Origin: Terrimicrobiaceae bacterium
GTDB lineage: Bacteria; Verrucomicrobiota; Verrucomicrobiia; Chthoniobacterales; JAATET01
Direction: 5' to 3'
Length of the DNA stretch: 64,000 bases
NCBI GenBank assembly: GCA_028713285.1
Contig: JAQTOP010000001.1
Location: 35,190 to 99,189 of the forward strand
Under the pieces are notes generated by a model. The model was not told the origin of the DNA. It ran no database searches and saw nothing but the letters and a program-made list of their open reading frames with translations. A program made the position numbers and the translations under genes. Below are positions 8,884-29,853 of the stretch, one piece after another. Positions within the stretch are counted from its first letter, which is position 1. Each line of letters begins with the position of its first letter.

Positions 8884-8916
8884 ACTTTGAAGATTGTTTC
8901 CGTCAGATTGTTGCAG

Positions 8917-14200: not shown

Positions 14201-14645
14201 ATTGCCTTACGAGTTTTCGCGGTAGCAAGAACTCCCTGGCGAATAAGTCCATTTGGACCTCCAGCCTTTGCCTGTGGCTGTAGTCGATAACTCGGTCCGT
14301 GCCGACCGGAGATGATTCTGCCGATCTGGTAGGATCGACCTCGAAGATCTGGCCGTCATCCGTCGAGTCACCCAGCTCGGCGTGTCCGATCTCGTGGGCG
14401 ATCAGAAATGCCTTTTCGAAATCAGTGCCCTTGTCTTCATGCAGAATCAGTTGATCTCGATCGCTGTAAGTCGCTCGGGCACCATTCAACTGGGCGGCCC
14501 CCACCGCCACTGTCTCGACGTCAATCTCCCGGCGTTTTGCTTCAGCCATGGCAAACCCGTAGGGTCGCCAAGGACTCTCTCCTCTTTGAACTGCTTCTGT
14601 ATGCAGGCGAGCGGCAATTTGGCGGGCGGCTTCGACTGCATCCAT
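11250..14645 (-). CDS. ImmA/IrrE-type metallopeptidase domain fused to UvrD-like SF1 helicase and a C-terminal Cas4/AddB-like PD-(D/E)xK nuclease
   Basis: N-terminus: 'AFLIAHEIGHAELGD' (HExxH). Helicase motifs: 'AGPGTGKTQT', 'ILVDEYQDVN', 'VVGDPKQSIYRFRGA', 'NYRS', 'TIHGAKGLEFDVIHL' and 'LFYVALSRAKERL'. C-terminus: 'YDKCPRRFLY...CPNCPALFVCGE' (four Cys, as in Fe-S nuclease domains). Confidence 0.8.
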   Translation of the reverse strand: MDAVEAARQIAARLHTEAVQRGESPWRPYGFAMAEAKRREIDVETVAVGAAQLNGARATYSDRDQLILHEDKGTDFEKAFLIAHEIGHAELGDSTDDGQIFEVDPTRSAESSPVGTDRVIDYSHRQRLEVQMDLFAREFLLPRKLVRQLHLDQGLTVTAIASKLGANLEIVAQQLLDALLLPEVEPANETPRDRTPNPEQQEASNHWGLAYLLEAGPGTGKTQTLITRVESLLSDGVDPARILLLTFSNKAAGEMAHRLAQRHPQAAAAMSIGTFHAFGLDLIRRFNDQLDLPKNPRLLDRTEAVELLEEEFHRLNLIHFRDIYDSTPRIVEILGAISRAKDEVVNADRYQQLAQAMLAAATDEESLQNAQRVEEIARVYRRYEEVKRAQKCVDFGDLVLLPALLLEQNEEVRNRLQQLYDHILVDEYQDVNRSSVRLLAALKPDGKNLWVVGDPKQSIYRFRGASSFNVTQFGNQDFSGGQRGRLIKNYRSSVEIVDTFSTFATQMRGLREETRLVPTRENSGIAPELQCVERGNQLSVALADNIEKLREQGFPYRNQAVLCGGNERLAAMAAELESLKIPVLFLGSLFERREIKDLLSLLSILTDRRAAGLLRVATWPEFMMRMEDVVSILNHLRDTQDPPRTWLNDPEKIPHISREGINTLNHLAEALAGFTSESQPWRVLSVFLLDRTRQAADIALSNDVAVRAQGVAIWQFMNFLKGQPAAQGLPIVRLLNRVRRLILLGDDRDLRQMPDAASGLDAVRLMTIHGAKGLEFDVIHLPGMSKDTLPTSWRRPPCPIPDGMIEGTHEGSEEHLQKAHDQEQECLFYVALSRAKERLCFYAAKTKSNGHNRPTTPFLERLQNHVRRTEVAPTREIPAAPEETSIPTELEADNTFRDSELALYDKCPRRFLYTHILRTGGKRQQTGLMMMHDAVRQVCDQLAGNDEITDEQLVEKVQSALKTTGLSEHGYVDDYQTLAGQMLGFLRSSRNGRKAAPGGAAEIEIGGHNVNVAFDETLTDQAGNQVIRRIRSGHYRKAHEDDLATVAFILMGTRQFPGASLEVAYLADQKTWEPSMGGKKLGNRAELIQKILTAITTGQFPADRSSRTCPNCPALFVCGEVPLGKISKKVG

Positions 14646-14650
14646 ATCAG

Positions 14651-15232
14651 CTAGTCCTCCTTGAGGAGTTTCTCCCTCAGCTCAACGGGGGTGTTCGTCT
14701 GAATGAGCAGCTGCTCAAATGTCACTTGGCTTTGAAGGCTCGGCTTTTCGGTCGCCTTGTAGCTGTGGGCCGACTGCATCTCTGGAGGAGTTGCCAAGAA
14801 ATTAGATAGTTCTTCCAGGCTGCTATCGATCTGGTTGGCCATTCTCCGCAAGAAGGCGCGTGGGATGGATGCCTCCAGAACAATTCTGTCGCGGATCGCC
14901 GCTAGAACTGCTCTTGAGATATTGAGCGCGCGCGCAGCTTCCCTTTGTTGGGCGATGGTCAAGGATACGAAGGGATCGCTGGTCTTGCTCGCTATTCCAG
15001 TTCGGTAGTGTTGCCAGGCCCTTTCTAGGATTGCGTGGTCTTGAGGTTGCAGTTCGGGCGCACTCGCTGAATCGTCTTCAGTGAGGAGCTTTCTGGAGAG
15101 CTCGATAAGATCTCCTGCCATGTGTGGATACTGATCGAGGTATTGATTTAGCGTGTCCTTGCCAGGGTTTGGCTCCATTGAAAAATGGAGTAGGACGTCA
15201 ATATCTTGGTCGCGGTCCGGATGCTGGTTCAT
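14651..15232 (-). CDS. Putative HTH/ImmR-like partner protein
   Basis: 193 aa, ending 5 nt upstream of the ImmA-helicase gene. 'LTIAQQREAARALNISRAVLAAIRDR' looks like a helix-turn-helix. The family was not recognised. Confidence 0.45.
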   Translation of the reverse strand: MNQHPDRDQDIDVLLHFSMEPNPGKDTLNQYLDQYPHMAGDLIELSRKLLTEDDSASAPELQPQDHAILERAWQHYRTGIASKTSDPFVSLTIAQQREAARALNISRAVLAAIRDRIVLEASIPRAFLRRMANQIDSSLEELSNFLATPPEMQSAHSYKATEKPSLQSQVTFEQLLIQTNTPVELREKLLKED

Positions 15233-15238
15233 GGCTGT

Positions 15239-16042
15239 CTACTCCTCGCGAAGAAGATCGCGCAAGGTGCTGAACGCCTTGTCGCGTTGGTTGCGGATGG
15301 TTTTCTCGACTCTTCCGAGAGTTGTTGAGATTGATCTCTCGTTGGGGTCTTTGGACTCGATCGGGTAGCCGAGTCGTAGGAGGTGGATGATGTTTTTTTG
15401 CATGGGCTCCAATTGGTTAATCGCTTGGTCCAGACGTTTCCGGTAATTTGGATCATCCAGTTTGTTTGGATCGGTAGGGTCGAAGCTGCCCGCGCTTCGT
15501 TCTGCCTTTGATGAGATTTCGCCCGATTCGGAGTCGATTTCCAACGGCGCCCTAGTGTCCTTCTCGCGTTGATATTTTCGTTCGCCGTCCGTCTCCAGTG
15601 CCTTTATGGCGACTCCGAAGCGGACCTCGAAGAAGTCCAAACGAGCGGATGGTTTTTCTCGATCCTTGAGCAGGAGGTTGACGAGCCTGTCAATGACGTA
15701 GGCCCGAACTGTGTCTTCTCTGGCCGAAAGGGGGGATTCCGGGTCTCTCATGCAACCGATCTGTTTGAGCACCCGCTCCATTAGAACCTTCCAAAGGCTT
15801 TCATGGCAGCGGTGATTGTGAGGAATTTTGTTGCCACGCAACAGGTGAACAATGACTTCGCTGGGGATGTAACTGTGATGCTCGGGGTCTGCGATGCCGC
15901 AATCCTCGCCAATGCGCTCGACTGATGACGTAAGGCTCTCCGAGATTTTCTTCTCTATTGCGGGGGGGCGGAGATAGAGGTTTTTGTCGCCCTTGCGTTT
16001 GGTAAGAGGATGAACTTCCGCATCAGTCGCTTTCATGTTCAA
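15239..16042 (-). CDS. Divergent sigma-70-like / region-4 HTH protein
   Basis: The C-terminal 'LEPMQKNIIHLLRLGYPIE...SISTTLGRVEKTIRNQRDKAFSTLRDLL' resembles sigma-70 region 4. It stops 6 nt before the next gene. Confidence 0.45.
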   Translation of the reverse strand: MNMKATDAEVHPLTKRKGDKNLYLRPPAIEKKISESLTSSVERIGEDCGIADPEHHSYIPSEVIVHLLRGNKIPHNHRCHESLWKVLMERVLKQIGCMRDPESPLSAREDTVRAYVIDRLVNLLLKDREKPSARLDFFEVRFGVAIKALETDGERKYQREKDTRAPLEIDSESGEISSKAERSAGSFDPTDPNKLDDPNYRKRLDQAINQLEPMQKNIIHLLRLGYPIESKDPNERSISTTLGRVEKTIRNQRDKAFSTLRDLLREE

Positions 16043-16128
16043 AGTTCAATTTTTGAAGGTGCCGAGCGTGACATTTTTCATGGAGAGAGGTTGCAGAGAA
16101 TGACGGTTTGTTTCCTGTCGTACGGCGA

Positions 16129-19100
16129 TTATTCCTCGTAGGTAATTCCGAAGATCGTGTCTGTCAGCCAGCGGCGGAAGGAGTCGTTGTCTTGGAATTG
16201 TTTGAAGAGCTGTGCGTCGTCTTTGAACATTGCCGTGATCACCCGTTTGAGGGCTTTGTCGTGTTCGATTCGCGCGTTCTGCCGGTCGGAGTTTTGCCTG
16301 GCATTTTGGTAGGCCGGGTCCGCTGATACCTTCGGCGGAATGATGTCTATGATCCGCCGTTCCACGGCCTTCGGGTCGTTAAATAGCCCGCCGAACTGGT
16401 CGTTGAAGGCTTTGATGATGTTTGAGAGTTTGTCCATCTCCGGCTCAGGTTTGCGACCGCCGCCGCTCGTTGGCACCGGTTCGATTTCGGCGTCGGCGTC
16501 GGGCAGCGCAATGGCCAGTGTTGCCTTTTTTTCGGCGCGGTAGCTGTCCATGTCGATGGCTTCGAGAATGCCTTTGGCGAGGTCTTCCTCCTTCGGTGCG
16601 GGGAGCTTCGGGATGAGGAAGTTCAGGAAGATCGAGAGTTTTTCCCACTCCTGCACGCCATACGGCAGGATGGTCGCGAGGAAATCATACGTGCGGGTGA
16701 AGGCCTTGGCCTTCCCCTTGAAATCGACCTGCTTGTCCTCGTCGAGGTCGTTCACATAGACGGCGACGCAGGCGTCGAGGATTGGATGAACCTTGTCAAC
16801 GATCTGCCCGTCGAGATAGAGGTTCACGAATTCTTCCACCTGATCCGGCGAATAGACCTGATACCCATCCAGCTCGTTCTTGAGGGTGTGGAGCTTGTTT
16901 GGGTCCGTCTCCTTGCTGAGGATCGTGGCGCGATAGTAGTCGGCGAAGGATTTTTCGATGGCCTCGGTGTCGTTTTGGAAGTCTAGGACGAAGACGTCGT
17001 GCTTTTTCGGGTGTGCCCGGTTCAGGCGAGAGAGAGTCTGAACGGCTTTGATGCCGCTGAGCGCCTTGTCCACATACATGGTGTGCAGCAACGGCTCGTC
17101 GTAGCCGGTCTGGAATTTGTCGGCGCAGATGAGGAATCGATAGGGGTCTTCCTGGATATTGTCCGCGATGTCGTTGCTCGAAAATCCGTTTAGTTTCGCC
17201 TCGCTGACTTTATCGCCCTTGTATTCCGGCTCCCCGGAGAAGGCGACGATGGCCTTGTAGGGGCTTTTGATTTCCTTGAGGTAGGCGGTGAAGGCGAAGA
17301 AATACTCGATGGCCCGCTGAATGCTGCCGGTGACGACCATTGCCCGTGCCTGTCCGCCGATCTTGTTCTGGCCGATCACCTGTTCGAGGAAGTGGTCCAC
17401 CATGATCTCCGCTTTGTCGCGGATGGCTTTGCTGTGACTCTCCACGTAGAGGCGCAGTTTCTTGCGGGCCTTCTTTACGTCGAACTCCGGGTCTCCCTCG
17501 ACGGTTTTGGCGAGTCGATAGTAGCTGTCCACGGGGGTGTATTGTTTCAACACGTCGAGAATGAAACCCTCCTGGATGGCCTGTTTCATCGTGTAGCCGT
17601 GGAAAGGCCGGTGTTTCACCTCGCCTTCCGGGTAGGCGATGCCAAACATTTCCAGCGTTTTGTTTTTCGGCGTGGCAGTGAAGGCGAAGTAACTGGCGTT
17701 TGGCAGCATCTTCCGCTGCTCGATGATGCGGTTGATCTTGTCCTCCGTTGTCTCCTCTTCTTCCTCGGTGGCCTCGCCCAGCGCTGCGCTGATCGCCGCC
17801 GCTGTGCGTCCGCCCTGGCTGCTGTGCGCTTCGTCAATGATGATGGCGAAGTTTCCGCCGCGGTGTTCCGCGCCGATGCTGTCGAGCACGAAGGGGAAGG
17901 TCTGCACCGTGGAGATGATGATTTTCTTCCCGTCCTTGAGGAACTTTGAGAGTTGCTCGGTCTTCGAGACGCCGGCGCCTTCTTTCACTGCACCGACGAT
18001 GCTGCCGACCTGGGCGAAGCCCTTGATGGTCTCGCGGATTTGTTTGTCGAGGATGCGCCGGTCGGTGACGACGATGATCGTGTCGAATGCTTCCTTGCCG
18101 TCCTTCCGCGCGCTGATGAGCTGATGTGCCAGCCATGCGATGGAGTTAGATTTGCCGCTGCCTGCGGAATGCTGGATGAGATAATGCTGGCCCGCGCCCT
18201 TCTCCCGCACGTCGGCCAGGAGTTTGCGCACCACGTCGAGTTGGTGGTAGCGGGGGAAAATCTGAACCTGCTTTTTCTTTCCGGTCTTCGGGTTCTCCTC
18301 CTCCACGATCTGCGCATAGTTTTCCAGAATCTCCGTGAGGCCCGCTGGGGTGAGGATGTGGTTCCAGAGGTAGTCCGTCTTCAATCCGTCCGGATTTGGT
18401 GGATTGCCCCCGCCGTCGTTCCAGCCCTGATCGAAGGGAAGAAACCACGACTCCTTCGCCATGCCCTTGCTGCCCTTGAGCGCCGTGCACATGGCTACCT
18501 TGGCGTCGTCCACCGCGAAATGAACGACGCAACGGCCAAACTCGAACAGCGTCTCGCGTGGATCGCGGTCGCGTTTGTATTGTTCGATGGCGTCCTCGAC
18601 CGTTTGCTTGGTCAGGCTGTTTTTCAGTTCAAAGGTCATCACCGGCAGGCCGTTGATGAAGGCGCAAAGGTCCAGTGCCCGCTTCGTTTCCTCGCGGCTA
18701 TAGGCGAGTTGGCGTGTGATGCTGAACCTGTTCTGCGCGTGCCGCTCCACTGCCTTTTTGTTCTCCGGTGAAGGTGTGCCGTAGAATAGATCGAAGCTCA
18801 GTGCCCCGTGCTTGATGCCGTGCCGCAGCACGTCAATCGTGCCGCGCCGCGAAATCTCTCCCTGCAAGCGGGCGAGGAACTTCTGGCGAGTAATGTTCTT
18901 CTTGTCCTTGTAGTCGCCGATGCCGAGTTTGGCTGTCGCCTCCGGTTGGGTGGCTTGGAGGAAGGCGAAGAGCTGCTCCACATCCACTGCGAACTCGCGA
19001 TCATACGCCGCCGCGTGCCCGGCAAACCAGCCGTTGCCGCCGGTCAGGGGCGCGGTTTCCGCAACGATGCCCGGTGCGCCGGAGAAAAGGCCGCTCGTGC

Positions 19101-19158
19101 CGGTCATGTGAGCCATGATCAGAGTTTCGAGGCCTTTTTCGGTGGTGTCGGTTGGCAT
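16129..19158 (-). CDS. hsdR: Type I restriction enzyme R subunit
   Basis: 1009 aa. N-terminal nuclease 'VMTFELKNSL', SF2 motifs 'HSAGSGKSNSIAW' and 'IIIDEAHSSQ', and a characteristic HsdR C-terminus. Confidence 0.9.
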   Translation of the reverse strand: MPTDTTEKGLETLIMAHMTGTSGLFSGAPGIVAETAPLTGGNGWFAGHAAAYDREFAVDVEQLFAFLQATQPEATAKLGIGDYKDKKNITRQKFLARLQGEISRRGTIDVLRHGIKHGALSFDLFYGTPSPENKKAVERHAQNRFSITRQLAYSREETKRALDLCAFINGLPVMTFELKNSLTKQTVEDAIEQYKRDRDPRETLFEFGRCVVHFAVDDAKVAMCTALKGSKGMAKESWFLPFDQGWNDGGGNPPNPDGLKTDYLWNHILTPAGLTEILENYAQIVEEENPKTGKKKQVQIFPRYHQLDVVRKLLADVREKGAGQHYLIQHSAGSGKSNSIAWLAHQLISARKDGKEAFDTIIVVTDRRILDKQIRETIKGFAQVGSIVGAVKEGAGVSKTEQLSKFLKDGKKIIISTVQTFPFVLDSIGAEHRGGNFAIIIDEAHSSQGGRTAAAISAALGEATEEEEETTEDKINRIIEQRKMLPNASYFAFTATPKNKTLEMFGIAYPEGEVKHRPFHGYTMKQAIQEGFILDVLKQYTPVDSYYRLAKTVEGDPEFDVKKARKKLRLYVESHSKAIRDKAEIMVDHFLEQVIGQNKIGGQARAMVVTGSIQRAIEYFFAFTAYLKEIKSPYKAIVAFSGEPEYKGDKVSEAKLNGFSSNDIADNIQEDPYRFLICADKFQTGYDEPLLHTMYVDKALSGIKAVQTLSRLNRAHPKKHDVFVLDFQNDTEAIEKSFADYYRATILSKETDPNKLHTLKNELDGYQVYSPDQVEEFVNLYLDGQIVDKVHPILDACVAVYVNDLDEDKQVDFKGKAKAFTRTYDFLATILPYGVQEWEKLSIFLNFLIPKLPAPKEEDLAKGILEAIDMDSYRAEKKATLAIALPDADAEIEPVPTSGGGRKPEPEMDKLSNIIKAFNDQFGGLFNDPKAVERRIIDIIPPKVSADPAYQNARQNSDRQNARIEHDKALKRVITAMFKDDAQLFKQFQDNDSFRRWLTDTIFGITYEE

Positions 19159-19162
19159 GGGC

Positions 19163-19759
19163 TCAGAGTTTATCGTTTAGAATTCTTTTCGACCGAGCGA
19201 AGCTCGGAAGCAGGGGTTCAAGCGTTGTCGGGTTTAGCTCGCCCAAGACCACGAACGACCGCTTTCCCTTTTTATACGCATTGGTGCAGTTCCGCGTGGC
19301 GTGTTCGAGCTTGGTATGAACGTCGGCCCGGCCGCGGCTCTCCAGACCATTTGTGGGTGGAAGGGCGTTCTCTTGAAGGTTGTGTCCGTAGTGGGCCTTC
19401 AGGGTTTCCCGGTCCGCCACGATCCACGACTCCATGCATGTCGTCATGAAAAGCACCTGTTCATCCTCGGCCCCTTCAGGTTTTTCCCAATTGTCTCGTG
19501 TCTTAAGGTGCGACCAAGCTTTCTCGATGTCCGCCATGGGGTCCTCGCTGTCGATGAGCATCGCCACAAAGTGGCCGGGCTTTGCATCTGAATGGGCGGT
19601 CTTGAAGTCGTCGAACGCGGAGTCCCTGCCTCCACACGCACTCAGTCGAGGTAGGCGACCCGTGAATCCGGATTTTTCCAGGAGTCGGCGAAATCCCTCG
19701 CGGCAGCGAATTTGATCCTCCTTGGATTCTGCACCCTCGATGTAAAGATGTGCGCTCAC
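19163..19759 (-). CDS. DUF4276-like protein with Toprim-like acidic motifs
   Basis: 'HLYIEGAES...' and 'AMLIDSEDP' give an E...DxD-like pattern. 4-nt overlap with the upstream ATPase gene. Confidence 0.6.
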   Translation of the reverse strand: MSAHLYIEGAESKEDQIRCREGFRRLLEKSGFTGRLPRLSACGGRDSAFDDFKTAHSDAKPGHFVAMLIDSEDPMADIEKAWSHLKTRDNWEKPEGAEDEQVLFMTTCMESWIVADRETLKAHYGHNLQENALPPTNGLESRGRADVHTKLEHATRNCTNAYKKGKRSFVVLGELNPTTLEPLLPSFARSKRILNDKL

Positions 19760-20946
19760 CAGCGGGAACCTCCGATTTCACCTTTGGTCCAGAGCTGCCC
19801 GAGCCGGTATTTTTTCAGCCATGCTGTGAGATCTTTCGCCTTGAGGCGATCCATGCGGGTTTGCCCCTGTTCCTTGGCACATACCACCACGGCCTCCGGC
19901 GTCTCCGTCATCGCGTCAACGAGGATGTCCGAGTGCGTGGTGATGATAAGTTGTGTGCGTTCTGCGGCGGCTTTGATGAGGTCCGCCACCTTGGGGAGGA
20001 TGTCGGGATGCAGACCCAGCTCCGGCTCCTCAATGCAGATCATCTTCGGTGGCTCGGGGTCGCAGAGGATGGCCAGCAAGCAGAGATAGCGCAGAGTTCC
20101 ATCCGAAAGGCGTGTCGCCGGTATGGAGAAGTCTCCTTCCGTGAAGAACACCTGAACGGTTCCGCCTTCGATGAAGACCTCGAAATCATGAATGCCGTCG
20201 TAGAGGTCTTTCAGACCGTTGAGGATCGCCTTCTTGGCTTTCGGGAACTTTGTTTTTAGCCTGTTCAGGAAAAGACCGAGGTTGGAAAAGTCTTCTTCCA
20301 ACGTGTCATTCCGCATGTCTGCCTTCTGCGGTTCGCGGAATACTGCTCCCCGCCCGAATGCCCATTCCCGGTAAATTCGGATGCTTTCGTAACTTTGTGC
20401 CAGCCACGCCAGTTCTGGATAGGTCTCGGGGTCACGACGCTGAGCGAGAATCGAGAGGTCCGTTTCGATGGTGTCACGCGCAAGTTTACGCTGTCCATCG
20501 CCCGCGGTATTCAAGACCGGATGGCCGCCTTGGAAGCGGTAATAGAAATAGGCTTCCGGTTGTCCCTGATAGGGGCTCTGGTTCTCGACCTGTTCATCAT
20601 CGAGGGCGAAGGCTTGCGATACGGCATGAAACGCCATGCTGTGACGAAGCGGCTGTTTCCCTTTTGGATTGCTGACCACGACTTCGAGGCGGGCTTTGCC
20701 GTTCTTCTTTTCACCTTTCCAAATCCACTCTGCTACTCCGCCGCCCTTGCGCGTGACCTCGCGCCATTCCTTTGGTGCGGCACGCAATAGGTTGATCGCT
20801 TCGAGGAGGTTCGATTTGCCACTCCCGTTTGCACCGATGAGCACGTTTAAGTTCCGCAGTTCGAGTCCGGGAAAATCCGGCCCGAAGGAGAGAAAGCTCC
20901 TGGGTTGCAGATGTCGGATTAGGGTTGGATCTGGTGCGGTTGGCAT
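19756..20946 (-). CDS. ABC/SMC-type AAA ATPase (AAA_15/21-like)
   Basis: Walker A 'LIGANGSGKSNLLEAI', Walker B and D-loop 'ICIEEPELGLHP', and 'IITTHS'. Confidence 0.8.
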   Translation of the reverse strand: MPTAPDPTLIRHLQPRSFLSFGPDFPGLELRNLNVLIGANGSGKSNLLEAINLLRAAPKEWREVTRKGGGVAEWIWKGEKKNGKARLEVVVSNPKGKQPLRHSMAFHAVSQAFALDDEQVENQSPYQGQPEAYFYYRFQGGHPVLNTAGDGQRKLARDTIETDLSILAQRRDPETYPELAWLAQSYESIRIYREWAFGRGAVFREPQKADMRNDTLEEDFSNLGLFLNRLKTKFPKAKKAILNGLKDLYDGIHDFEVFIEGGTVQVFFTEGDFSIPATRLSDGTLRYLCLLAILCDPEPPKMICIEEPELGLHPDILPKVADLIKAAAERTQLIITTHSDILVDAMTETPEAVVVCAKEQGQTRMDRLKAKDLTAWLKKYRLGQLWTKGEIGGSRW

Positions 20947-20959
20947 AATTTCAATTTAT

Positions 20960-22129
20960 CTATGGTTCGAGGCATCTTTCGCTGGCGGTTTCCGGAAGCA
21001 GTTTGCTGTAGCCCTCCAGCATGACCGACATCCCATCGAGGGTCGGCTGAACGGTTAGGTCTGGATATTTTTTGCTGATCAAGTCCGCCTTGTTTTTCAA
21101 CAAGACTCGCACGTCTTCAAGCCCTCTCAATTCATCCTCCAACGTCGTTTCAAACTCGGGCACCGTGTCACTGGCCACTGCAAGCGATTGATCGAGCCGC
21201 AGGGAGTATTCGATGAGCATGAGGTGGGGTTGCCTTTCCGTGATTTTCTGGTGCGTCTCTTGATGCGGCCCTTTGTCCACCGGCTCGATCCAGCCAAAAA
21301 TGTTCCGGAACCAGTCTCGTTGATTGGGATCCTTGACTAACTCGATTTCGTGTCGCATTTCGCGCCGCCAGCGCGTGCGTAGTTCTCGAAGTTCTCCTCG
21401 CATTTTCCAAAGCTCCCACTGTTTTTCTTTGGTGACTTCTCCCCGACAAAGTTCGCGGGCTGAGGTGTAGATGCGTTCCAGCGCCGACATTTGGTCGATC
21501 TTCCGATAAGCCAACAAAAGATCGATCTTCGCATCTACGGCCTTCAGTCGCCGAGCAATGTCCGCTCCAGATATGATATGCGCCGCGCCGACAACCACCG
21601 CGCCCAGAGAGGCTAAGCGACCCAATGCTTGGGCTCCTCGAGCCTCCTTCATCATCTCCAAAATGCGGCCGTCCTTGACACCTCGAATCACGGGAAGGGT
21701 CCGTTCGGAAGCGGTGCGGGAAATCACAGCGACGCCTTCTTGCAGCAATTTTTGTCCGTCTTTCGAGATGGATACCACCATGTTCACGCCGGTTTCGGCC
21801 AATTGCAGGCTATTGACCGCAATAACCAAACCGTCAGGCGCTGATGACATCAATCTGCGATTGAGATCGGACAGCGCGGCCTCTTGGCTGGCCCCTGCAA
21901 ACTTCTCCAGGTCCAGGGATTCATCGAAACTCAAGCGCGTGATGACATTATCGAGAGGGCGGGCGGCTTCTACATAATCAGCAACTCGCCCGTCAACGAC
22001 TGCGACGGTTTGACCCATGGGCCTCGCGGTGGTTGATCCAAACCATGATGCAAGCCGCGGCCAGAAAAGAGTCCCGGCTATAAAAACCAACGCAATTCCC
22101 AACAGGATCATGAGCCAATCCCAATTCAT
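20960..22129 (-). CDS. Membrane-anchored protein of unknown function
   Basis: 389 aa with an N-terminal TM helix, 'WLMILLGIALVFIAGTLFW'. The rest is helical and charged. 4-nt overlap with hsdS. Confidence 0.55.
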   Translation of the reverse strand: MNWDWLMILLGIALVFIAGTLFWPRLASWFGSTTARPMGQTVAVVDGRVADYVEAARPLDNVITRLSFDESLDLEKFAGASQEAALSDLNRRLMSSAPDGLVIAVNSLQLAETGVNMVVSISKDGQKLLQEGVAVISRTASERTLPVIRGVKDGRILEMMKEARGAQALGRLASLGAVVVGAAHIISGADIARRLKAVDAKIDLLLAYRKIDQMSALERIYTSARELCRGEVTKEKQWELWKMRGELRELRTRWRREMRHEIELVKDPNQRDWFRNIFGWIEPVDKGPHQETHQKITERQPHLMLIEYSLRLDQSLAVASDTVPEFETTLEDELRGLEDVRVLLKNKADLISKKYPDLTVQPTLDGMSVMLEGYSKLLPETASERCLEP

Positions 22130-23508
22130 GCCTCAACTTCCTCCAATTCTTGCGAGGCATCATAGATTGGGGCCTCGACTGGCATGAGTTCGGATGATTC
22201 AGGCAGCTTGGCTGCTGCGGCGCGGACGTCCAGTTTGCCGGTCACCACGTCCGCCGTCAGCCGCGTCCGGTATTCCTGCATCAGTGCGATTTCCCGCTCG
22301 GTGCGGGCGATTGCGGTGTTGAGGTCTGCCGATTGTTCTCCGATCCCTTTTAGGATGGTGTCCTGTTCGTTCCGAGGTGGTAGCGGAATATGGATCGCGC
22401 CGAACCGGTCGTTGTAGAGTCGCATGAATCCTGAGGTGCCCGTGCCTAGTCCTTTCGATTCGGAGCGAAATTTTACTCGGAGTGTGCGGGTCCGAAAAAG
22501 CTCCCCCAAGTAATCGACGTTCACGTCGGAAATTGGGTCGAAGACGGCGTAGTCGGGACTGACGAGGCCAGTGATTTCGAGACACGAAGGGAATATCACT
22601 CCGTTGCCTGCCTGCATTCGGTTCACTACAAACTGCCGTGGTTTGACAATCTTGAATCCGACCAGCGTTGCCGCTTGGGGTGGGCGAGTGAAGTGCTCGG
22701 AAAATACGACTAGGCCGTGATGCATTCGCATCGAAAGCAGTGGCTCTGCCCCGCTGGTGGAGCGGTTATCAACCTCTTTCAGCAGGTATTTAATTCGTAT
22801 CACCTCCCAATGCTTTGGGATGTCGCTGAGCCAGGGGATGCTGGAGCGTTTGAGGGGGGCGTTGGGGTTGAGGCCGCAGGTGACGGCGCGGTGGATGATG
22901 GCCTGCTTCTGCTCGTTCAGTAGCCCAATCAGCTTTCGTTTGGCGCGGATGAAGCCGTCGATCTTCCGGTTCGCATGGTCTAAAAATCGCACGATAGCCG
23001 CTTGTTCCTCGGGGGGAGGTAGCGGAGTCTTCAGGCTCGCAAATGTCCCGCGTTGAATCGTCTTCCGAAGCCCGGTGTAGAGCGGCTTCATCAGCTTTCC
23101 GTCGTCGATGAAGCGGTAGTAGTGGTTCAGGAAACGGGGATCAACTCGCGCCGTCGGGCTGAAGACGTCGTATGCACCGGTGATCATTCCCCGCTGACGC
23201 GACAGGCCAACACCACGCGGGGTCTCGTCGATGTCGAACAGGCAAAAGATCATGTCGTTTGGCCGAACGACTTTGTAGGTGTTGAACTGCGCTGGAAATT
23301 TCCCCTTGGGATTCACCATGTCGCGGGCAATGACGCCTTGGAGGGTGAGCGAGAGTAGCGTGTAGTCAGAAGCACCTTCGCCTACGACCTGGCGCTGGTC
23401 TTTCATCAGCGCACGATTCGGAATCATTTCCCAATGGCTGGGAACAGCGTCCAGCCACGGCAGGCTGGGATTCTTGTATTCCGAATGCTGCTGGAGTCCC
23501 TCGATCAT
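22126..23508 (-). CDS. hsdS: Type I R-M specificity subunit
   Basis: Two target-recognition halves are each followed by the conserved 'PLPPPEEQAAIVRFLD' / 'PLPPRNEQDTILKGIG' helices. Confidence 0.9.
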   Translation of the reverse strand: MIEGLQQHSEYKNPSLPWLDAVPSHWEMIPNRALMKDQRQVVGEGASDYTLLSLTLQGVIARDMVNPKGKFPAQFNTYKVVRPNDMIFCLFDIDETPRGVGLSRQRGMITGAYDVFSPTARVDPRFLNHYYRFIDDGKLMKPLYTGLRKTIQRGTFASLKTPLPPPEEQAAIVRFLDHANRKIDGFIRAKRKLIGLLNEQKQAIIHRAVTCGLNPNAPLKRSSIPWLSDIPKHWEVIRIKYLLKEVDNRSTSGAEPLLSMRMHHGLVVFSEHFTRPPQAATLVGFKIVKPRQFVVNRMQAGNGVIFPSCLEITGLVSPDYAVFDPISDVNVDYLGELFRTRTLRVKFRSESKGLGTGTSGFMRLYNDRFGAIHIPLPPRNEQDTILKGIGEQSADLNTAIARTEREIALMQEYRTRLTADVVTGKLDVRAAAAKLPESSELMPVEAPIYDASQELEEVEA

Positions 23509-25334
23509 GCCGTGGCTGCCTCCATGACACGGTTGGGATTCCAGATGTGCTCGGCAAGCTTGAGGTAGAGCGTGCAGCGCTCCTCCATCTCGGCGGACTT
23601 GAACAAGACTATCGGTTTGAACGGTAGGCCGGTGGTCTCGATAAATCGAAGGAAGCCGGGATTGTTCTGGTAACAGGTGGAGTGAAGCGAGCGGGCCAGT
23701 ATGTTTTGCCCGTGGTAGTGTGGTAACTTTTCCTCGTAGGTAAGGTCGCCATAGCTGGCATTGAAGCTTTTTGGCAACAGCAGCAACCCGCCGATCCGAT
23801 TGCGCATGGTGGCGAAGTCGCTGGGGTGGCTGAATTCATCCTTGTGCCGTTCAGGGTGGTTGGCCCAGATGTGCTCGATCTCGTAGCGCTTTTTCCCGGT
23901 GGCCATGTATTCCGCGTAGCGCGATGCCATGCCGGAGCGGGTCTCCACAAAATCCGTCATGCGGGCGAGGAGGCGGTGAATCTGACGGCCGTTTGTGCCG
24001 TGCATGGCGAAGCGCTCGTTTTTCGCAAAGGTCTCCTGGTCGTCTGCGAGCCGCTGCGCGAGGACGGCGGCGGTGTCGGCCGCAGATTTCCCCCGGATGT
24101 CCCTTATGACGTTGAACATCGCGTATTGGAGGGTGGAGTAGTCGATGGCTCGCCAATTCCAGATGCGGCGGGTGATGAGAATGTCGATGAAGGTGCTCAC
24201 GACGCGCAGCTTGCGGAGGATTTCCGGTTCTGGATCGTCGGGGAGCAATGGGGCGAGCAGGACTGAATACTGGAGGGTAAAGTTGTGGTGGGTGTTGAAA
24301 TGGATCGCTTCCAAGCCGGTGGTCAATTCCCACCCGGCCCATCTCGTCCGCAGGTATTGGGCGGTGTAGAACTTGAAGTCGCGTTCGATGAAACGGGCGA
24401 ATTCGGAGGATTTCGTCAGGCCGAGACTTTCCTCGTGGTCGCGAATCCAGCGGTGAAACTCGGTGCCGATGAGGTCGAAGTCTTCGGGCTTCGCGTTGCG
24501 TTTGCGTTCGCGAATTTTCTGGGCGTGCTGGCTGCGGAGCCACGCCTTGATGGCGTCGGCGTCTTCTTCCTTGCCCCAGTCCTGGCACTCAGCGATGCGT
24601 TCTTTCCAAACTTTGCTGGCGGCGTTGCGGGTGGACTCGTCGGTGATGTTGGCGAGAAGATAGCCCTTGAGCATGTCCGTAGGCGTGAGGGATAGCCCGC
24701 GGTCGTTCATGGTCTCGAAAATGGTATAGGCGTCCTCGTCGGAGTAGGCGGTGATTTCGACGAGATGGACGTTTTCGATGAGCCAGTCGGCAAAAAACGG
24801 AAGCACGGCTCCGCCGATCTCGTCGGGAAACTCGTCCGCTATGTCTTCGAAGCGGCCGAGGATGTTGACGACGGACTCCGACTGGTCGGTAGGGTCAAAG
24901 GGCTGGCCTGTGTAGATCGCATCCATGCAGGGCGTGCGGTCGGGCACGTCGAGGTTGAAGGAACGCTTACCGTGTTTCCGAGAAAAAATGAGATCGGCCA
25001 TCTGGCCTTTCTCCTCCTCGTCCTCCAAGTGACGGTGCAGGTAGATGAGAAGGAGCGTGAGCGAGGTCAGCCGTTGCTGACCGTCGATAATGTATTTTTG
25101 GCCGTCGCGGTCGCTGATGATGATCGAGCCAAGGAAGTAATGGCCGTAGTTCTCGACATCGGTGCGATCGTGGCCCGACTCGTGACTTTCGAGGAACTTG
25201 GCGGCGAGGTCCTCGACAAGCTCGGTGATCTGCTTGGTCTGCCAGCGGTATTCGCGCTGGTAATAGTCGATGGAGTATTTCGCGCCGCCAAGAAGCTCGC
25301 GAATGGTTTTGGCCTTGCCGAGGATTTCCTTCAT
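23505..25334 (-). CDS. DUF262 (ParB-like NTPase) plus DUF1524 (His-Me nuclease) protein, GmrSD-like
   Basis: 'IDYYQREYRW' and 'DGQQRLTSLTLL' (DUF262); C-terminal 'YEIEHIWANHP' (DUF1524). Confidence 0.8.
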   Translation of the reverse strand: MKEILGKAKTIRELLGGAKYSIDYYQREYRWQTKQITELVEDLAAKFLESHESGHDRTDVENYGHYFLGSIIISDRDGQKYIIDGQQRLTSLTLLLIYLHRHLEDEEEKGQMADLIFSRKHGKRSFNLDVPDRTPCMDAIYTGQPFDPTDQSESVVNILGRFEDIADEFPDEIGGAVLPFFADWLIENVHLVEITAYSDEDAYTIFETMNDRGLSLTPTDMLKGYLLANITDESTRNAASKVWKERIAECQDWGKEEDADAIKAWLRSQHAQKIRERKRNAKPEDFDLIGTEFHRWIRDHEESLGLTKSSEFARFIERDFKFYTAQYLRTRWAGWELTTGLEAIHFNTHHNFTLQYSVLLAPLLPDDPEPEILRKLRVVSTFIDILITRRIWNWRAIDYSTLQYAMFNVIRDIRGKSAADTAAVLAQRLADDQETFAKNERFAMHGTNGRQIHRLLARMTDFVETRSGMASRYAEYMATGKKRYEIEHIWANHPERHKDEFSHPSDFATMRNRIGGLLLLPKSFNASYGDLTYEEKLPHYHGQNILARSLHSTCYQNNPGFLRFIETTGLPFKPIVLFKSAEMEERCTLYLKLAEHIWNPNRVMEAATA

Positions 25335-27658
25335 TTCGCCGCTCCTTTCGTGATCTCGGTGAGCAGGCTCTCGGTTTCCTGCTCTAGCTTGAGGATGTCG
25401 GCACTTATCTCAGCGAGGGTGCGAAGCTGCGGCGGCAGGTAGAAGTGACGAGTGAAGCTGACTTCGTAGCCGATCTTGGTGTCGGCTTCGACGATCCACG
25501 CGTCGGGCGTGTAGGGCAGGACTTCGCGGCGGATGAATGCCTCGATGCCGCCTTCCTCCAGCAACGGAATTTGCTCGTAGTCGCGAAGTTCGCTGTCGGG
25601 TTCGTATTCGGCGACGCTGGTTTTCCCTTCGACCTTTGCTTCGTAGAGTCCGTGTAGAGGGTCGGGCTGAGCTTTGCCGGGCTTGTGAATCTTCTTGATG
25701 ACGGGTGCGGCGGCTTCATCACGCCAGCTCACGGCGGCGACGATGAGTTTCAGGTCGGCGGCACTAGGTTTCAGACCGAGTTTCCTCTGGGTCGCTTCGA
25801 CCTGATCGAGGAAGACGTTGTGATCCTCAAAGAGTCCATCGCCCAGGGCCTCGCGGAGTTTGGTGGCGGTGGCGACAAGCGCCGCGTCGCGCCGCCAGGT
25901 GTCGGTATCGAGCAGCTTCTTCTTTGTCTTTTCCGGCAGGCCCTTCTTTGCGGTGCCGTCGCCGTTGTCCTCATCGTCCCCGGCTTCGTCATCGCCCCAC
26001 GCCTCCACGAGTTTCGCCAGTTCCTCACGGACGGACTGCGGTTTTTCAAAAAGGTCGTCGCCGAGTTTTTCGTAGAGGGCGGCGCGAATCTCCTCGTCGC
26101 CCGACGCGAAGCGGAGCTTCTCGATGAGTGGGCGGGTGAGCTGGCTGTGCAGGCGGAGCGGGCGCTCGACCTTTACCTTCCAGTAACCGAAGGCGGCGTT
26201 GGGGAAGATTTTCGACTGCGGCGTTTCCTCGAACTTGAGGAAAGCATTGCAGATGCGCTGGATGTCCTCGGGGGCAAGTTCGCAGTTTTTCTTGCCCATG
26301 TTCTTTCGCAGCGGGCGGAACCATTGGGTGGCGTCGATGAGTTGCACCTGTCCCCGGCGGTGTTCCGGTTTTCGGTTTGTTACTACCCAGACGTAGGTGG
26401 CGATGCCGGTGTTGTAGAACATGTTCAACGGCAGGGCGACGATCGCCTCCAGCCAGTCGCTCTCGATGATCCAGCGGCGGATGTTGCTCTCGCCTTGGCC
26501 GGCGTCGCCGGTGAAGAGCGATGAGCCGTTGTGCACCTCGGCAACGCGGCTGCCGCGCGGGGTGTCGTGCTTCATCTTGCTGAGCATGTTGGCGAGAAAA
26601 AGCATCTGGCCGTCGCTGCTGCGGGTGAGAAGCGAGTAGTCGGACTCGCCAGCGTGCTGGATGACGAAGCGAGGGTCTTTGAGGTCCTTCTTGCCGCCCA
26701 TGCGCTCGAGATCGCCCTTCCAGCTTTTGCCGTAGGGCGGATTGGCGAGCATGAAGTCGAACTCGCGGGAGCGGAAGGCGTCGTTGGCCAGCGTGGAATG
26801 TTCCGGGCCGCCGACGATATTGTCAGCGGCGTCGCCGTCGCCCTTGAGCAGGAGGTCGGCTTTACAGATGGCGTAGGTTTCGCCGTTGATCTCCTGGCCG
26901 TAGAGATGCGTAGCGACCTGTTTGCCGTGGGCCTTGGCGATCTGCTGGAGCGTCTCCTCGGCGACGGTCAACATGCCTCCGGTCCCGCAGGCGCAGTCGT
27001 AGAGCAGGTAGGTGCCGCTCTCGATCTTGTCTGCCACGGGCAGGAACATGAGGTTTGCCATGAGCCGGACGGCGTCACGGGGCGTCCAGTGCTCGCCAGC
27101 CTCTTCGTTGTTGTCCTCGTTGAAGCGGCGGACGAGTTCCTCGAACATCGTGCCCATCGAGTGGTTATCGAGGCCGGGAAGGTTTCCTGCGGGCTGTGGA
27201 CTGAGGTTGATGTCCTTATCGAGGAACTTCTCGATGAGCTGGCCGAGCGCATCGGCCTTCGAGAGACGCGGGATCTGGTTGCGGAACTCGAAGTTGGTGA
27301 GAATGTCCTGCACGTTGGGCGAGAAGCCGTCGAGGTAAGCCTCGAAGTCATCGCGGAGTTTCTGCTGGGTTGCGCGGGATTTAAGGTCGCGCAGGAGGAA
27401 GGGCGAGGTGTTGTAGAACGCCTGCCCAGAAGCGGCGCGGAGGGCATCGTCCTGATTGGTGACGCCTTCTTTGTCGAGGGCGGCTTTCATTTCGAGAACG
27501 GTCTGCTTGGTGGGCTCCAGCACCGCGTCGAGGCGGCGGAGCACAGTCATCGGCAGAATGATGTCGCGGTATCTGCCGCGGACGTAAACATCCCGCAGGA
27601 CATCATCCGCGATGTTCCAAATGAAGTTGGTGAGTCCGCTGAGTTGAGTTTGGTCCAT
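25331..27658 (-). CDS. hsdM: Type I R-M N6-adenine DNA methyltransferase subunit
   Basis: 'YDCACGTGGML' (SAM motif I), 'MLANPPYGKSW' (motif IV) and an N-terminal HsdM_N-like region. Confidence 0.9.
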   Translation of the reverse strand: MDQTQLSGLTNFIWNIADDVLRDVYVRGRYRDIILPMTVLRRLDAVLEPTKQTVLEMKAALDKEGVTNQDDALRAASGQAFYNTSPFLLRDLKSRATQQKLRDDFEAYLDGFSPNVQDILTNFEFRNQIPRLSKADALGQLIEKFLDKDINLSPQPAGNLPGLDNHSMGTMFEELVRRFNEDNNEEAGEHWTPRDAVRLMANLMFLPVADKIESGTYLLYDCACGTGGMLTVAEETLQQIAKAHGKQVATHLYGQEINGETYAICKADLLLKGDGDAADNIVGGPEHSTLANDAFRSREFDFMLANPPYGKSWKGDLERMGGKKDLKDPRFVIQHAGESDYSLLTRSSDGQMLFLANMLSKMKHDTPRGSRVAEVHNGSSLFTGDAGQGESNIRRWIIESDWLEAIVALPLNMFYNTGIATYVWVVTNRKPEHRRGQVQLIDATQWFRPLRKNMGKKNCELAPEDIQRICNAFLKFEETPQSKIFPNAAFGYWKVKVERPLRLHSQLTRPLIEKLRFASGDEEIRAALYEKLGDDLFEKPQSVREELAKLVEAWGDDEAGDDEDNGDGTAKKGLPEKTKKKLLDTDTWRRDAALVATATKLREALGDGLFEDHNVFLDQVEATQRKLGLKPSAADLKLIVAAVSWRDEAAAPVIKKIHKPGKAQPDPLHGLYEAKVEGKTSVAEYEPDSELRDYEQIPLLEEGGIEAFIRREVLPYTPDAWIVEADTKIGYEVSFTRHFYLPPQLRTLAEISADILKLEQETESLLTEITKGAAK

Positions 27659-27817
27659 ACGTCAGGCTTCTATCAAGCCGCTGATGGAGCCGAGCGGACG
27701 CAAACTACAGAGTATATCGGAGCGGCGGGGTGGGTAGAGCACAAGCGATCGATCCTGTCAAATTGGAAGCGTTTTGACGAGAAAAACCCCCTACTGCCCG
27801 AAATGGGCTCCAAATAG

Positions 27818-27851
27818 AAAAACCCGGAGAGTTTGAACTCTCCGGGTTTTT
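27818..27851 (-). terminator. Bidirectional rho-independent terminator
   Basis: AAAAACCCGGAGAG-TTTGAA-CTCTCCGGGTTTTT, 32 nt downstream of the stop of 27883-29091. Confidence 0.75.
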
Positions 27852-27882
27852 CGTGGGAATGGTTTAGTCCGTCATCCTTCTC

Positions 27883-29091
27883 TCATTTTTCGATACGGCG
27901 GAAGACTTCCAGGTTGACCTCATCCGTTGACTTCAAGAGGGCTGTGAATTCGCCATTTCTGAAGAACCTGAAAGGAGCGTCCGGTGAGGCATTTTCCGGG
28001 CCAACGGGAAAGTGATTCCGCAGATGATCCAGGATGGTCTGTTCGTATTGCCGGGCGTTTTCAAAATGCGCCGTCAGTGCCTCGGCCACCTCCTCCTTTC
28101 TTGTCGCCTGCTCGAGCGTCAGCAAGCTTTGGGCTTCTTCGAGGGTTTTGGCCTTCTCGAACTGCCTGCGGAGCGCATTGGATTTCGGAGTGATCGCCGA
28201 GGAGCGCGCGCCGGAAAACGGACGAAGATAGCGCACCGTCAGATACGCCGTCCGATCGACGTCCCCCCCAGCGAAGGGGTTGAAGTATCCGACGGGCTCG
28301 ATTTCGAGAGCAAGCTCCCCAAAAAGAGGCTCGGCAATTTTCTTCGGGAAGAGGCTCTGGGACCCATCCCAAATCTTGGGGTCAAGTAATACCGCTGCCG
28401 CGTCTCCTTCTGCGGTATTCGCGGTATTACTTTCCGCGATTGTTGGTGCCTGTCGGAAAAGGTAGAGAGTCACTGATGCATATTGCGAATCGAGAACGGC
28501 AGACACATTCCGGTCACCAAACACAGCCCGACCGCTAAAATCTGGCCCGGCGGTTTGTTCTCGCCCATCTGTATTGTATTTCAGCCGATAATTTTCGTCG
28601 GGAAAGGCATGTTGAAGCGCTTTCCTGATGGATTCTGAGATGGCAGACAGTGCTTTTCCGGTTCCGTTGGAGAACTCCTTGTCTCTCTTTTGCCGTGCAG
28701 CGATGAGAGCAGATGCGAGCTGTTTCGCCTGCGCTTTATCAAACGGTGCCGTATTATTGACTGTGTCAAGCTGTGCTTGGAGAAGCTTTTCTTCCTCGGT
28801 TCGATAGGCGAAACGGTCCGCGAACGTGATGGTAATGCAGGTCAACTTACCGTGTCGGAACATTGCCTGTGCCATGACAGGGTTCTGTCCGAATAGCATT
28901 GTCGGTGTTTTCCAAGTCTGCATTTCCCAGTCCTTACCCGCCGACGCCTTGAGCCAATCGCCGGGGAGGTTGACCGGAGTAGTTTTCCACGCGTCGGTAA
29001 GAAAAATAGATTCGGCCGTGGGTGATTGAGCGTGGATGTCTGGCACAATGGCCAGAACCACCATGATGGTAGTGAGCAGGGTTATTTTCAT
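27883..29091 (-). CDS. Secreted protein of unknown function
   Basis: Start set at 'MKITLLTTIMVVLAIVPDIHAQSP', a signal-peptide-like N-terminus. 402 aa with no recognised domain. Confidence 0.55.
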   Translation of the reverse strand: MKITLLTTIMVVLAIVPDIHAQSPTAESIFLTDAWKTTPVNLPGDWLKASAGKDWEMQTWKTPTMLFGQNPVMAQAMFRHGKLTCITITFADRFAYRTEEEKLLQAQLDTVNNTAPFDKAQAKQLASALIAARQKRDKEFSNGTGKALSAISESIRKALQHAFPDENYRLKYNTDGREQTAGPDFSGRAVFGDRNVSAVLDSQYASVTLYLFRQAPTIAESNTANTAEGDAAAVLLDPKIWDGSQSLFPKKIAEPLFGELALEIEPVGYFNPFAGGDVDRTAYLTVRYLRPFSGARSSAITPKSNALRRQFEKAKTLEEAQSLLTLEQATRKEEVAEALTAHFENARQYEQTILDHLRNHFPVGPENASPDAPFRFFRNGEFTALLKSTDEVNLEVFRRIEK

Positions 29092-29270
29092 AAATGGTTG
29101 CGGAAATCGGTGCCTCCCGTCGAGGGACGCCAGCACGCAAAGCATGCGAAGAAGGGGAAATCGGTCTTATGCAGGAGCATCGGAATGCGTTTACCCGCGA
29201 ACCGTAGTTTCCACCAGTAGAATTTCTATTAGTAGAAAACAGGAAGGGCTTCATGCCCTAAAAAGAAGGT

Positions 29271-29549
29271 GTGTCTGGTCGAAATTCACCCTTTGGGCAA
29301 CGGCGCAACGCGTTCGGGGCGGCATTGCGCCGTATGCGGGTGACGCAGGGGCTCTCGGCGACCGAGGTGATCGCAAAGTTGGGAGTGCGCGGATGGGATG
29401 TTGCGGCCTCGTCTTATTCTCAAATTGAGAGCGGGCAACGCATTCTTGCGGACATCGAATTGCTGCTGATTTTAGAGGTGTTCGGCGCGGAATTAAAGGA
29501 CTTGGAGATTCCGAAATCCCTACGACGGCCTGCCAAAAATCCAAAGTAG
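29271..29549 (+). CDS. XRE-family HTH regulator
   Basis: 'FGAALRRMRVTQGLSATEVIAKLGVRGWDVAASSYSQIESGQR' is a typical Cro/C1 HTH. Confidence 0.75.
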   Translation: MSGRNSPFGQRRNAFGAALRRMRVTQGLSATEVIAKLGVRGWDVAASSYSQIESGQRILADIELLLILEVFGAELKDLEIPKSLRRPAKNPK

Positions 29550-29564
29550 GTCAATTCAGTGGGG

Positions 29565-29744: not shown

Positions 29745-29816
29745 GTTAGGCCACGTCTTTTCGTCCCTGGGGAGGAGCAAACGTGACGACCAAGGAGGCT
29801 CCCTGCGGCTGACACG

Positions 29817-29844
29817 AAAAAACGGGCGGTTTCCCGCCCGTTTT
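29817..29844 (-). terminator. Rho-independent terminator
   Basis: AAAAAACGGGCGG-TTTC-CCGCCCGTTTT, immediately downstream of the SSB-like gene stop (29854). Confidence 0.7.
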
Positions 29845-29853
29845 GGTGATCGA

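Follow-up and report, generated by a model that had tools for sequence, protein, structure and literature searches.

A probable composite anti-phage operon around a complete type I restriction-modification system in a Terrimicrobiaceae bacterium

Seven intact minus-strand genes (positions 16129-27658, 11.5 kb) were analyzed in a window of 64,000 nucleotides from a Terrimicrobiaceae bacterium (GenBank assembly GCA_028713285.1, contig JAQTOP010000001.1, positions 35,190 to 99,189 of the forward strand); the term window denotes this whole stretch of DNA, and positions refer to it unless another locus is named. According to the open reading frame (ORF) listing and the junction read-out, the genes follow each other in the order hsdM, a GmrSD-like gene, hsdS, a gene for a membrane protein of 389 amino acids (hereafter TM389), an ABC-type ATPase gene, a DUF4276 gene and hsdR (Table 1). 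They probably form a composite anti-phage operon, in which a complete type I restriction-modification (R-M) system carries three accessory modules in two habitual slots, a reading that draws on gene content, intact catalytic motifs, coupling-type junctions, purifying selection and a slot/cassette pattern that recurs in relatives. The general concept of layered defence systems embedded in a type I R-M operon is well supported and already known, as the embedding of genes in such operons, and in those of BREX, DISARM and Hma, has been described before (Payne et al., bioRxiv 10.1101/2024.01.29.577857). Six of the seven products were identified with Pfam, PADLOC and NCBIfam, TM389 being the exception. 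These domain calls agree with the gene identities and the order given in an initial annotation made from the sequence alone, whose ORF coordinates were exact, and homology also supports a layered reading of the locus as a type I core joined by a GmrSD-type enzyme and an OLD/PARIS-like ATPase-nuclease pair, which fits the published concept of embedded defence.

Judged by its domains and motifs, the core of the locus is a complete type I R-M system of a long-HsdM lineage. HsdM contains the Pfam domains HsdM_N and N6_Mtase, matches the PADLOC model MTase_I (PDLC03029) over its full length (E = 5e-253) and carries the S-adenosylmethionine motif CACGTGG near residue 225 and the catalytic NPPY at residue 306. 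HsdS matches the PADLOC Specificity_I models (1e-79), which align with residues 6-433 of 460, while Pfam Methylase_S detects only one target-recognition domain; a conserved C-terminal helix is common to its relatives. In HsdR, the motif D..ELK is found at about residues 163-182, GSGKS at 333 and DEAH at 442, and the protein matches Pfam HSDR_N, SWI2_SNF2, ResIII and a T1R_D3-like domain, TIGR00348 (4e-59) and PADLOC REase_I, so that all three subunits show the domains and motifs by which type I R-M is recognized. The lineage is widespread; its HsdM proteins are about 770 and its HsdR proteins about 1010 amino acids long, and both genes have a ratio of nonsynonymous to synonymous substitution rates (dN/dS, here and below from pairwise comparisons) of 0.08. 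The HsdS of the window is only ~40% identical to that of a related locus whose HsdM and HsdR are 91% identical (L001; related loci carry L numbers), which indicates that the target-recognition domains have been swapped.

The seven genes are tightly joined. Three junctions are ATGA overlaps (25331-25334, 23505-23508 and 22126-22129), the ATPase/DUF4276 junction is a GTGA overlap (19756-19759), and the other two are gaps of 13 nt (20947-20959) and 4 nt (19159-19162), exactly as the initial annotation had described. All four overlapping starts are preceded, at a distance of 9-15 nt and within the preceding gene, by a Shine-Dalgarno-like GGAGG or AGGAG. The same tight, same-strand pattern was seen again in independent relatives, which argues for an operon architecture and not for chance. 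Upstream of hsdM, the RNA of an intrinsic terminator folds with -28.4 kcal/mol (z = -6.8; none of 200 shuffles folds equally well) and insulates the hsd operon from upstream transcription, while terminator-like matches inside the unit (28, against 21.6 +/- 4.5 expected) are no stronger than chance. Co-transcription of all seven genes from a single promoter, which would lie in the leader, is what this layout suggests. The ORF directly upstream of the operon (27883-29145, minus strand) encodes 420 amino acids and has no Pfam, PADLOC or NCBIfam match.

A comparison with orthologous hsd loci, which the initial annotation had recommended, was carried out and retrieved loci without inserts as well as loci with other inserts (Table 1). 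In all relatives a conserved block opens with hsdM and closes with hsdR while the flanks are unrelated, which marks the block as an evolutionary unit. Extra genes are seen in two slots, hsdM-to-hsdS and hsdS-to-hsdR, and the cassettes found in relatives comprise GmrSD, SLFN/AlbA, DarTG, NYN, PIN, Fic, HigB with M78, and pP_pnuc. Plasmid pMtWR-220 of Meiothermus taiwanensis, for instance, shares with the window both the HsdM/HsdR lineage (HsdM 80%, HsdR 69% identical) and the architecture hsdM-DUF262-hsdS-X-ATPase-DUF4276-hsdR, but X stands for DarT/DarG on the plasmid and for TM389 in the window, the two ATPases are only 28% identical, and BLAST finds no match between the plasmid's DUF262 protein and the GmrSD-like protein of the window; the low ATPase identity and the unmatched DUF262 protein, despite similar hsd genes, indicate that the same slots were filled independently. 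For TM389 itself, identity is 85% in L056 (HsdM and HsdR 66-70%) but 79% in L001 (HsdM and HsdR 91%), and this discordance with the flanking hsd genes points to cassette exchange. From such comparisons, GmrSD and TM389 are best described as swappable cassettes. The initial annotation had spoken of four foreign genes inserted into the operon, which mixes two histories, that of these variable genes and that of the ATPase/DUF4276 pair, whose identity tracks that of HsdM and HsdR as in an old resident.

Two possible scars were noticed at the borders of TM389. Its last ten codons (ETASERCLEP; 20960-20995, minus strand) align in frame with codons 3-11 of hsdR (PTDTTEKGLE), with a score that was reached by 3 of 2000 shuffles in a comparison made post hoc, and in L056 a 52-amino-acid remnant of an HsdR N-terminus (9846-10004) lies just before TM389. 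Both are suggestive and would fit an arrival of TM389 from a locus in which it abutted hsdR, as it does in L002 and L058. Pseudogenisation of the inserts in relatives, an outcome considered in the initial annotation, found no evidence, and all inserts are under purifying selection (dN/dS 0.05-0.16). The split hsd and GmrSD genes of L057 were examined as a case of decay and rejected: they are most likely assembly frameshifts, because housekeeping genes on the same contig are split too. As a separate observation, HsdM of L001, the closest relative, is extended at its C-terminus by 487 unrelated amino acids (7171-8634) without a Pfam match, in the slot of the window's GmrSD gene; the extension is either a fused cassette or the result of a lost stop codon.

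Table 1. Features of the window and gene orders of related loci (M, S and R stand for hsdM, hsdS and hsdR)
Feature or locus	Position	Strand	Description or gene order
hsdM	25331-27658	-	775 aa, long-form type I N6-adenine methyltransferase
GmrSD-like gene	23505-25334	-	609 aa, candidate type IV (modification-dependent) endonuclease
hsdS	22126-23508	-	460 aa, specificity subunit, two target-recognition domains
TM389	20960-22129	-	389 aa, membrane protein, rare uncharacterised family
ATPase	19756-20946	-	396 aa, ABC-type, HEC-01A family
DUF4276	19163-19759	-	198 aa, GTG start, Toprim-like putative nuclease, HEC-01B family
hsdR	16129-19158	-	1009 aa, PD-(D/E)xK-type nuclease motif and SF2 translocase
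Leader and presumed promoter region	27659-27821	-	163 nt, promoter position presumed
Intrinsic terminator hairpin	27822-27858	-	16-bp stem followed by U run, ends upstream gene 27883-29145
Spacer after hsdR	16043-16128	-	86 nt, without terminator-like structure
CBASS E2-like	6067-6732	-	
CBASS CD-NTase	6720-8045	-	
CBASS patatin phospholipase effector	7939-8883	-	
CBASS E1-like DUF6791/ThiF protein	9300-10841	-	
L001			M-S-TM389-ATPase-DUF4276-R; HsdM/HsdR 91% identical; no GmrSD gene
L002, L003, L007 (Spartobacteria metagenome-assembled genome)			M-S-TM389-R; 4-nt overlaps, no other insert
L056			M-SLFN-GmrSD-S-pP_pnuc-TM389-313aa-R
L058			M-SLFN/AlbA_2-S-TM389-R
L063, L065, L066			M-[none, DUF1016 or Fic]-S-ATPase-DUF4276-[variable]-R
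Meiothermus taiwanensis pMtWR-220 (NZ_CP021131.1)	47.8-59.7 kb		M-DUF262-S-DarT-DarG-ATPase-DUF4276-R
Klebsiella and Enterobacter plasmids			DUF262-M-S-R; nothing between M, S and R; HsdR 57% identical

The ATPase and its DUF4276 partner correspond to the HEC-01 pair of Payne et al.: the ATPase matches HEC-01A (PDLC04177, E = 1e-172) with residues 9-396 against 4-393 of 393 and has a Walker A motif (GANGSGKS at residue 38), and the adjoining DUF4276 protein matches HEC-01B (PDLC04201, 2.8e-64) with residues 2-197 against 3-199 of 202 and keeps the acidic Toprim residues E8, D70, E72 and E110, each at least 97% conserved among 121 homologues. The ATPase further matches Pfam AAA_21, AAA_15 and SMC_N and has an ABC signature-like LSDG at residue 280; its partner matches Pfam DUF4276, a family placed in the Toprim superfamily (PMC12065111; Payne et al.) and with Mad4 and RloB as relatives (PMC12065111). 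Their dN/dS values are 0.05 and 0.10, respectively. All sampled close homologues of the window's DUF4276 protein (67-90% identity) are found in this hsd lineage, after hsdS, and in three of four comparisons the identities of the pair follow those of HsdM and HsdR (in the order HsdM/ATPase/DUF4276/HsdR, 91/95/90/91% for L001, 85/81/80/85% for L063 and 68/73/67/67% for L065, with L066 discordant at 81/61/70/82%). Synonymous divergence from L001 is likewise similar (0.53-0.70). The position after hsdS in the sampled relatives, together with identities that track HsdM and HsdR, points to an old resident, and on these comparisons the pair appears to be a long-term, co-diverging inhabitant of this hsd lineage across phyla. 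This co-divergence hints at functional coupling with the R-M enzyme, and remaining with one hsd partner across phyla is the pattern expected of a functionally coupled guard; such coupling could explain why HEC-01 is inactive when tested alone, outside the R-M context. A tblastn search of plasmids with DUF4276 at 1e-10 gave no match. The start codons of the ATPase, ATGCCAACC (MPT), are identical to those of hsdR and were considered as an hsdR remnant; this was rejected because 'MP(T/N/D)..NP.LI' is native to the ATPase family, also where hsdR starts differently. In L064 (Candidatus Accumulibacter, 6064-9000), the HEC-01 ATPase is truncated to 229 amino acids by an opposite-strand DUF6399 gene, and the near-identical L065 keeps the ATPase intact, which dates the disruption of the pair in L064 as recent.

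The GmrSD-like protein combines Pfam GmrSD_N (DUF262, 1e-33) with GmrSD_C (DUF1524, 9e-07; 29.3 bits against a cut-off of 23), and has the DGQQR NTPase motif at residue 84 and, in its DUF1524 part, an HNH-like EIEHIWANH in which the E-H is present. Its best PADLOC match is HEC-06 (2.9e-38), with 'Orf5' models scoring nearly equally. An orthologue 77% identical (dN/dS 0.10) occupies the same slot in L056. Most likely, as homology predicts, the enzyme would cut modified-base DNA (e.g., with hypermodified cytosines) that escapes type I restriction.

TM389 has a transmembrane (TM) helix at about residues 4-29, where the 19-residue Kyte-Doolittle mean reaches 2.3 (over 5-23), and an N-terminal hydrophobic helix is kept in 105 of 138 full-length family members, so the N-terminal TM helix is real. 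A small alpha/beta region (residues 103-158), a second hydrophobic helix with an AAH..AD motif that is invariant in the family alignment (182-190) and a C-terminal helical bundle with a conserved Arg/Glu-rich helix (W241..RGELRELR..WRRE) complete the protein, and the AlphaFold2 model (predicted local distance difference test 70, predicted template modelling score 0.67) consists of the TM helix, a small alpha/beta region and the helical bundle, with no significant fold match in PDB or BFVD. The protein is 100% identical to a hypothetical protein of a Terrimicrobiaceae metagenome-assembled genome. The public annotation (PHC88_00295, 352 amino acids) starts TM389 at M38 and thereby omits the conserved TM helix and the hsdS overlap (22019-22129, minus strand). 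TM389 matches nothing in Pfam, PADLOC or NCBIfam, and its alignment profile found no match among PDB sequences. The family is rare: 51 clusters were found in a search of 5.8 billion proteins and 366 cluster representatives among 1.84e9, and of 185,579 species genomes only 12 contain a member (from Verrucomicrobiota, Planctomycetota, Nitrospirales, Calditrichaeota and one Vibrio), to which metagenomes add 40 further loci. Neither plasmids and phages (tblastn) nor IMG/VR (pattern scan) yielded a match, and the family is not evidently plasmid- or phage-borne. Among longer relatives only single TPR and GNAT fusions were seen, which are uninformative. The dN/dS of TM389 is 0.14-0.16.

Close relatives of TM389 lie in the hsd lineage of the window, and distant ones occur in other type I families (L008, L011, L015, L030, L031, L047), in BREX loci ahead of PglZ (L006, L052/L053), beside giant DEAD+MZB/DUF1998 helicases (L012, L033), following a type IIG Eco57I-like enzyme (L043) and adjacent to an N6_N4 methyltransferase with AAA_13 (L023), SMEK (L044) or a KAP NTPase (L013). 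Considering two genes per side at 47 non-redundant loci (109 neighbours), the commonest Pfam domains were DEAD, HSDR_N, ResIII, SWI2_SNF2, Methylase_S and N6_Mtase and the commonest PADLOC families the type I S and R subunits, while no conserved partner gene emerged across the loci. In its genomic distribution, TM389 thus resembles a single-gene cassette that strongly prefers methylation-based defence operons, and a family that recurs across several such systems is a reasonable new defence or accessory candidate, nominated through 'guilt by embedding' in four kinds of methylation-based systems and absent from current PADLOC models. A partnership of TM389 with the ABC ATPase is contradicted by TM389 genes without the ATPase (L002, L058) and by those in BREX, DUF1998-helicase and type IIG loci. 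An ABC transporter formed by the two proteins was likewise rejected, because each also occurs without the other (the ATPase without TM389 in L063-L066); TM389 shows a single clear TM helix and lacks a permease domain, and the ATPase scores only 17.5 bits with ABC_tran, below the cut-off of 25.

Several known systems resemble parts of the locus. In 96.7% of cases, genes embedded in operons of the Hma, BREX, DISARM and type I R-M systems are co-oriented (Payne et al.), and the window likewise has co-oriented extra genes nested between the core genes of a methylation-based system, including two candidate families of that study, HEC-01A/B at full length and HEC-06 as best match; it differs in that three modules are stacked in one type I operon, that TM389 matches no PADLOC v2 HEC or PDC model, and that the HEC-01 pair co-diverges with the host hsd genes, unlike a sporadic insert. 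HEC-06 is a validated GmrSD-like defence enzyme that needs its DGQQR and HNH motifs, and PrrC and BrxU offer earlier cases of functional coupling or complementarity (both Payne et al.). In the pEFER BREX locus (Picton et al. 2021, as cited by Payne et al.), the GmrSD-family enzyme BrxU, directed against modified DNA, is nested in a system against unmodified DNA, with complementary cover; the window is alike in this respect, but its host is a type I R-M system and its enzyme is closer to HEC-06 than to BrxU models.

PrrC in EcoprrI and RloA/RloB in Campylobacter hsd loci are, like the pair in the window, ABC-type ATPase-nuclease modules inside an hsd operon. The R-M enzyme restrains PrrC, which is freed once a phage inhibits that enzyme; the nuclease of PrrC is a fused anticodon-nuclease domain, whereas that of the window is a separate Toprim/DUF4276 protein, and the guard link is only putative here. 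With PARIS (AriA/AriB) and the OLD family, the window shares the pairing of an ABC ATPase with a Toprim nuclease in two overlapping genes, and its ATPase gives partial AriA matches (5.9e-34). Membership in PARIS was nevertheless rejected, the partner being DUF4276, with HEC-01B matches only, and not DUF4435, the AriA match being partial and the ATPase shorter (396 amino acids). MADS was rejected as well, with NCBIfam scores of 38 bits for MADS2 (cut-off 720) and 88 for MADS3 (cut-off 420) and no mad matches in PADLOC for DUF4276 and HsdR.

In the mechanism that we propose for the composite operon, HsdM and HsdS would methylate adenines in a bipartite target, and HsdR would join them, translocate and cut unmethylated incoming DNA, with the GmrSD-family type IV endonuclease covering modified-base DNA that evades type I restriction. 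The ATPase would most likely be a sensor that licenses the Toprim nuclease upon encountering a phage factor, possibly one attacking the R-M enzyme, by analogy with OLD, PARIS and PrrC. TM389, an independent, membrane-anchored cassette by its behaviour, would most likely be a further defence or a back-up effector acting at the membrane, and abortive-infection roles are conceivable for such modules. The locus illustrates neatly how a single type I R-M lineage serves as a two-slot scaffold that gathers and exchanges defence cassettes. Going further, it is conceivable, if somewhat less likely than not to hold in full, that TM389 founds a new membrane-anchored family dedicated to methylation-based DNA-translocating immunity, either as effector/back-up or as tether/regulator, and that the ATPase-Toprim pair is, separately, a PrrC-like guard wired to the R-M enzyme.

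A number of observations weigh against a seven-gene anti-phage operon. No minus-strand sigma-70 promoter-like site was found in 14000-30000, even 5' of hsdM, and there is no terminator after hsdR (RNA fold of the spacer z = +0.27; no minus-strand terminator call), hence the transcript may run on into 15239-16042, 14651-15232 and 11250-14645. In the GmrSD-like protein, the usual proline of (D/E)HxxP is replaced (EHIWA), and its HEC-06 match is moderate and fragmented (130 bits in three stretches). Neither by fold (PDB, BFVD) nor by sequence (PDB) was a relative of known function found for TM389, and the homologue in L059 (Nitrospirales) stands alone among glycoside-hydrolase genes, with no defence neighbours. 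Finally, HEC-01 (ABC ATPase and Toprim) did not protect E. coli against the phages tested in the only published test (Payne et al.).

The first of these observations bears on whether the seven genes are one transcription unit at all, as internal promoters might drive hsdR and/or the inserts separately. The scan misses even the promoter of hsdM and is thus uninformative in this phylum and silent on internal promoters, so it has no power to exclude them. In classical type I loci such as EcoKI and EcoR124I, hsdR is indeed transcribed separately. Separate transcripts are nonetheless unlikely here given gaps of at most 13 nt, four 4-nt overlaps with Shine-Dalgarno motifs inside the preceding gene, internal terminator-like matches at chance level and the conservation of the junctions in relatives.

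As for TM389, it might not be an autonomous defence but an accessory subunit of methylation-based, DNA-translocating systems, e.g., an inner-membrane tether or regulator where phage DNA enters. It almost always directly follows hsdS with a 4-nt overlap in the hsd lineage of the window, its distant relatives lie inside methyltransferase-containing systems and not beside CBASS, toxin-antitoxin systems and the like, its TM anchor is conserved in the family, and for type I enzymes, EcoKI among them, an association with the cytoplasmic membrane has been reported. We consider such a role rather improbable: the same hsd lineage does without TM389 in L063, L065, L066, the Klebsiella plasmids and Meiothermus, the degree of identity of TM389 disagrees with that of the flanking hsd genes, other cassettes separate it from hsdS in L022, L056 and L057, the copy in L059 stands alone, and its host systems have no common subunit to which it could bind.

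That the inserts are selfish, addiction-type cargo or decaying passengers in a permissive operon, with no anti-phage benefit, is very improbable: the slots of relatives do take toxin-antitoxin-like cargo (DarTG, HigB with M78, Fic, PIN, NYN), HEC-01 was unprotective in E. coli and the ATPase gene of L064 is disrupted by an opposite-strand insertion, but none of the four inserts is truncated or has lost its motifs, purifying selection acts on them as strongly as on hsdM and hsdR, the ATPase/DUF4276 pair is retained with the hsd lineage across phyla, the GmrSD-like HEC-06 is a validated defence, and so, experimentally, is DarTG.

The operon lies in the lower-GC part of the window (GC content 0.51-0.60 in the left ~36 kb, 0.60-0.72 right of about 37 kb), and the defence genes form part of an integrated mobilisable island that continues beyond the left end of the window. 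The GC boundary (1-36200 vs. 36600-64000) coincides with a large serine recombinase (34419-36173), near which a Mob_Pre relaxase (31601-33637) and an AAA ATPase (30564-31577) are found, and to the right of it are glycoside-hydrolase-like giants (36613-41064 and 41042-45271). Downstream of hsdR, two orphan minus-strand ORFs (15239-16042 and 14651-15232) without Pfam, PADLOC or NCBIfam matches precede, with gaps of 5-6 nt, an 1131-amino-acid fusion (11250-14645, minus strand) of an M78 (IrrE-like) peptidase, a UvrD/GajB-like helicase and a PD-(D/E)xK nuclease; this cluster (11250-16042) may be a further uncharacterised defence cluster and may share a transcript with the hsd operon. A type II CBASS operon follows (6067-10841, minus strand; Table 1). 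At the left edge of the island, a 588-amino-acid protein encoded on the plus strand (1055-2821), with a HATPase_c_3 domain and a weak SduA_C (Shedu nuclease) match, may represent another defence gene.

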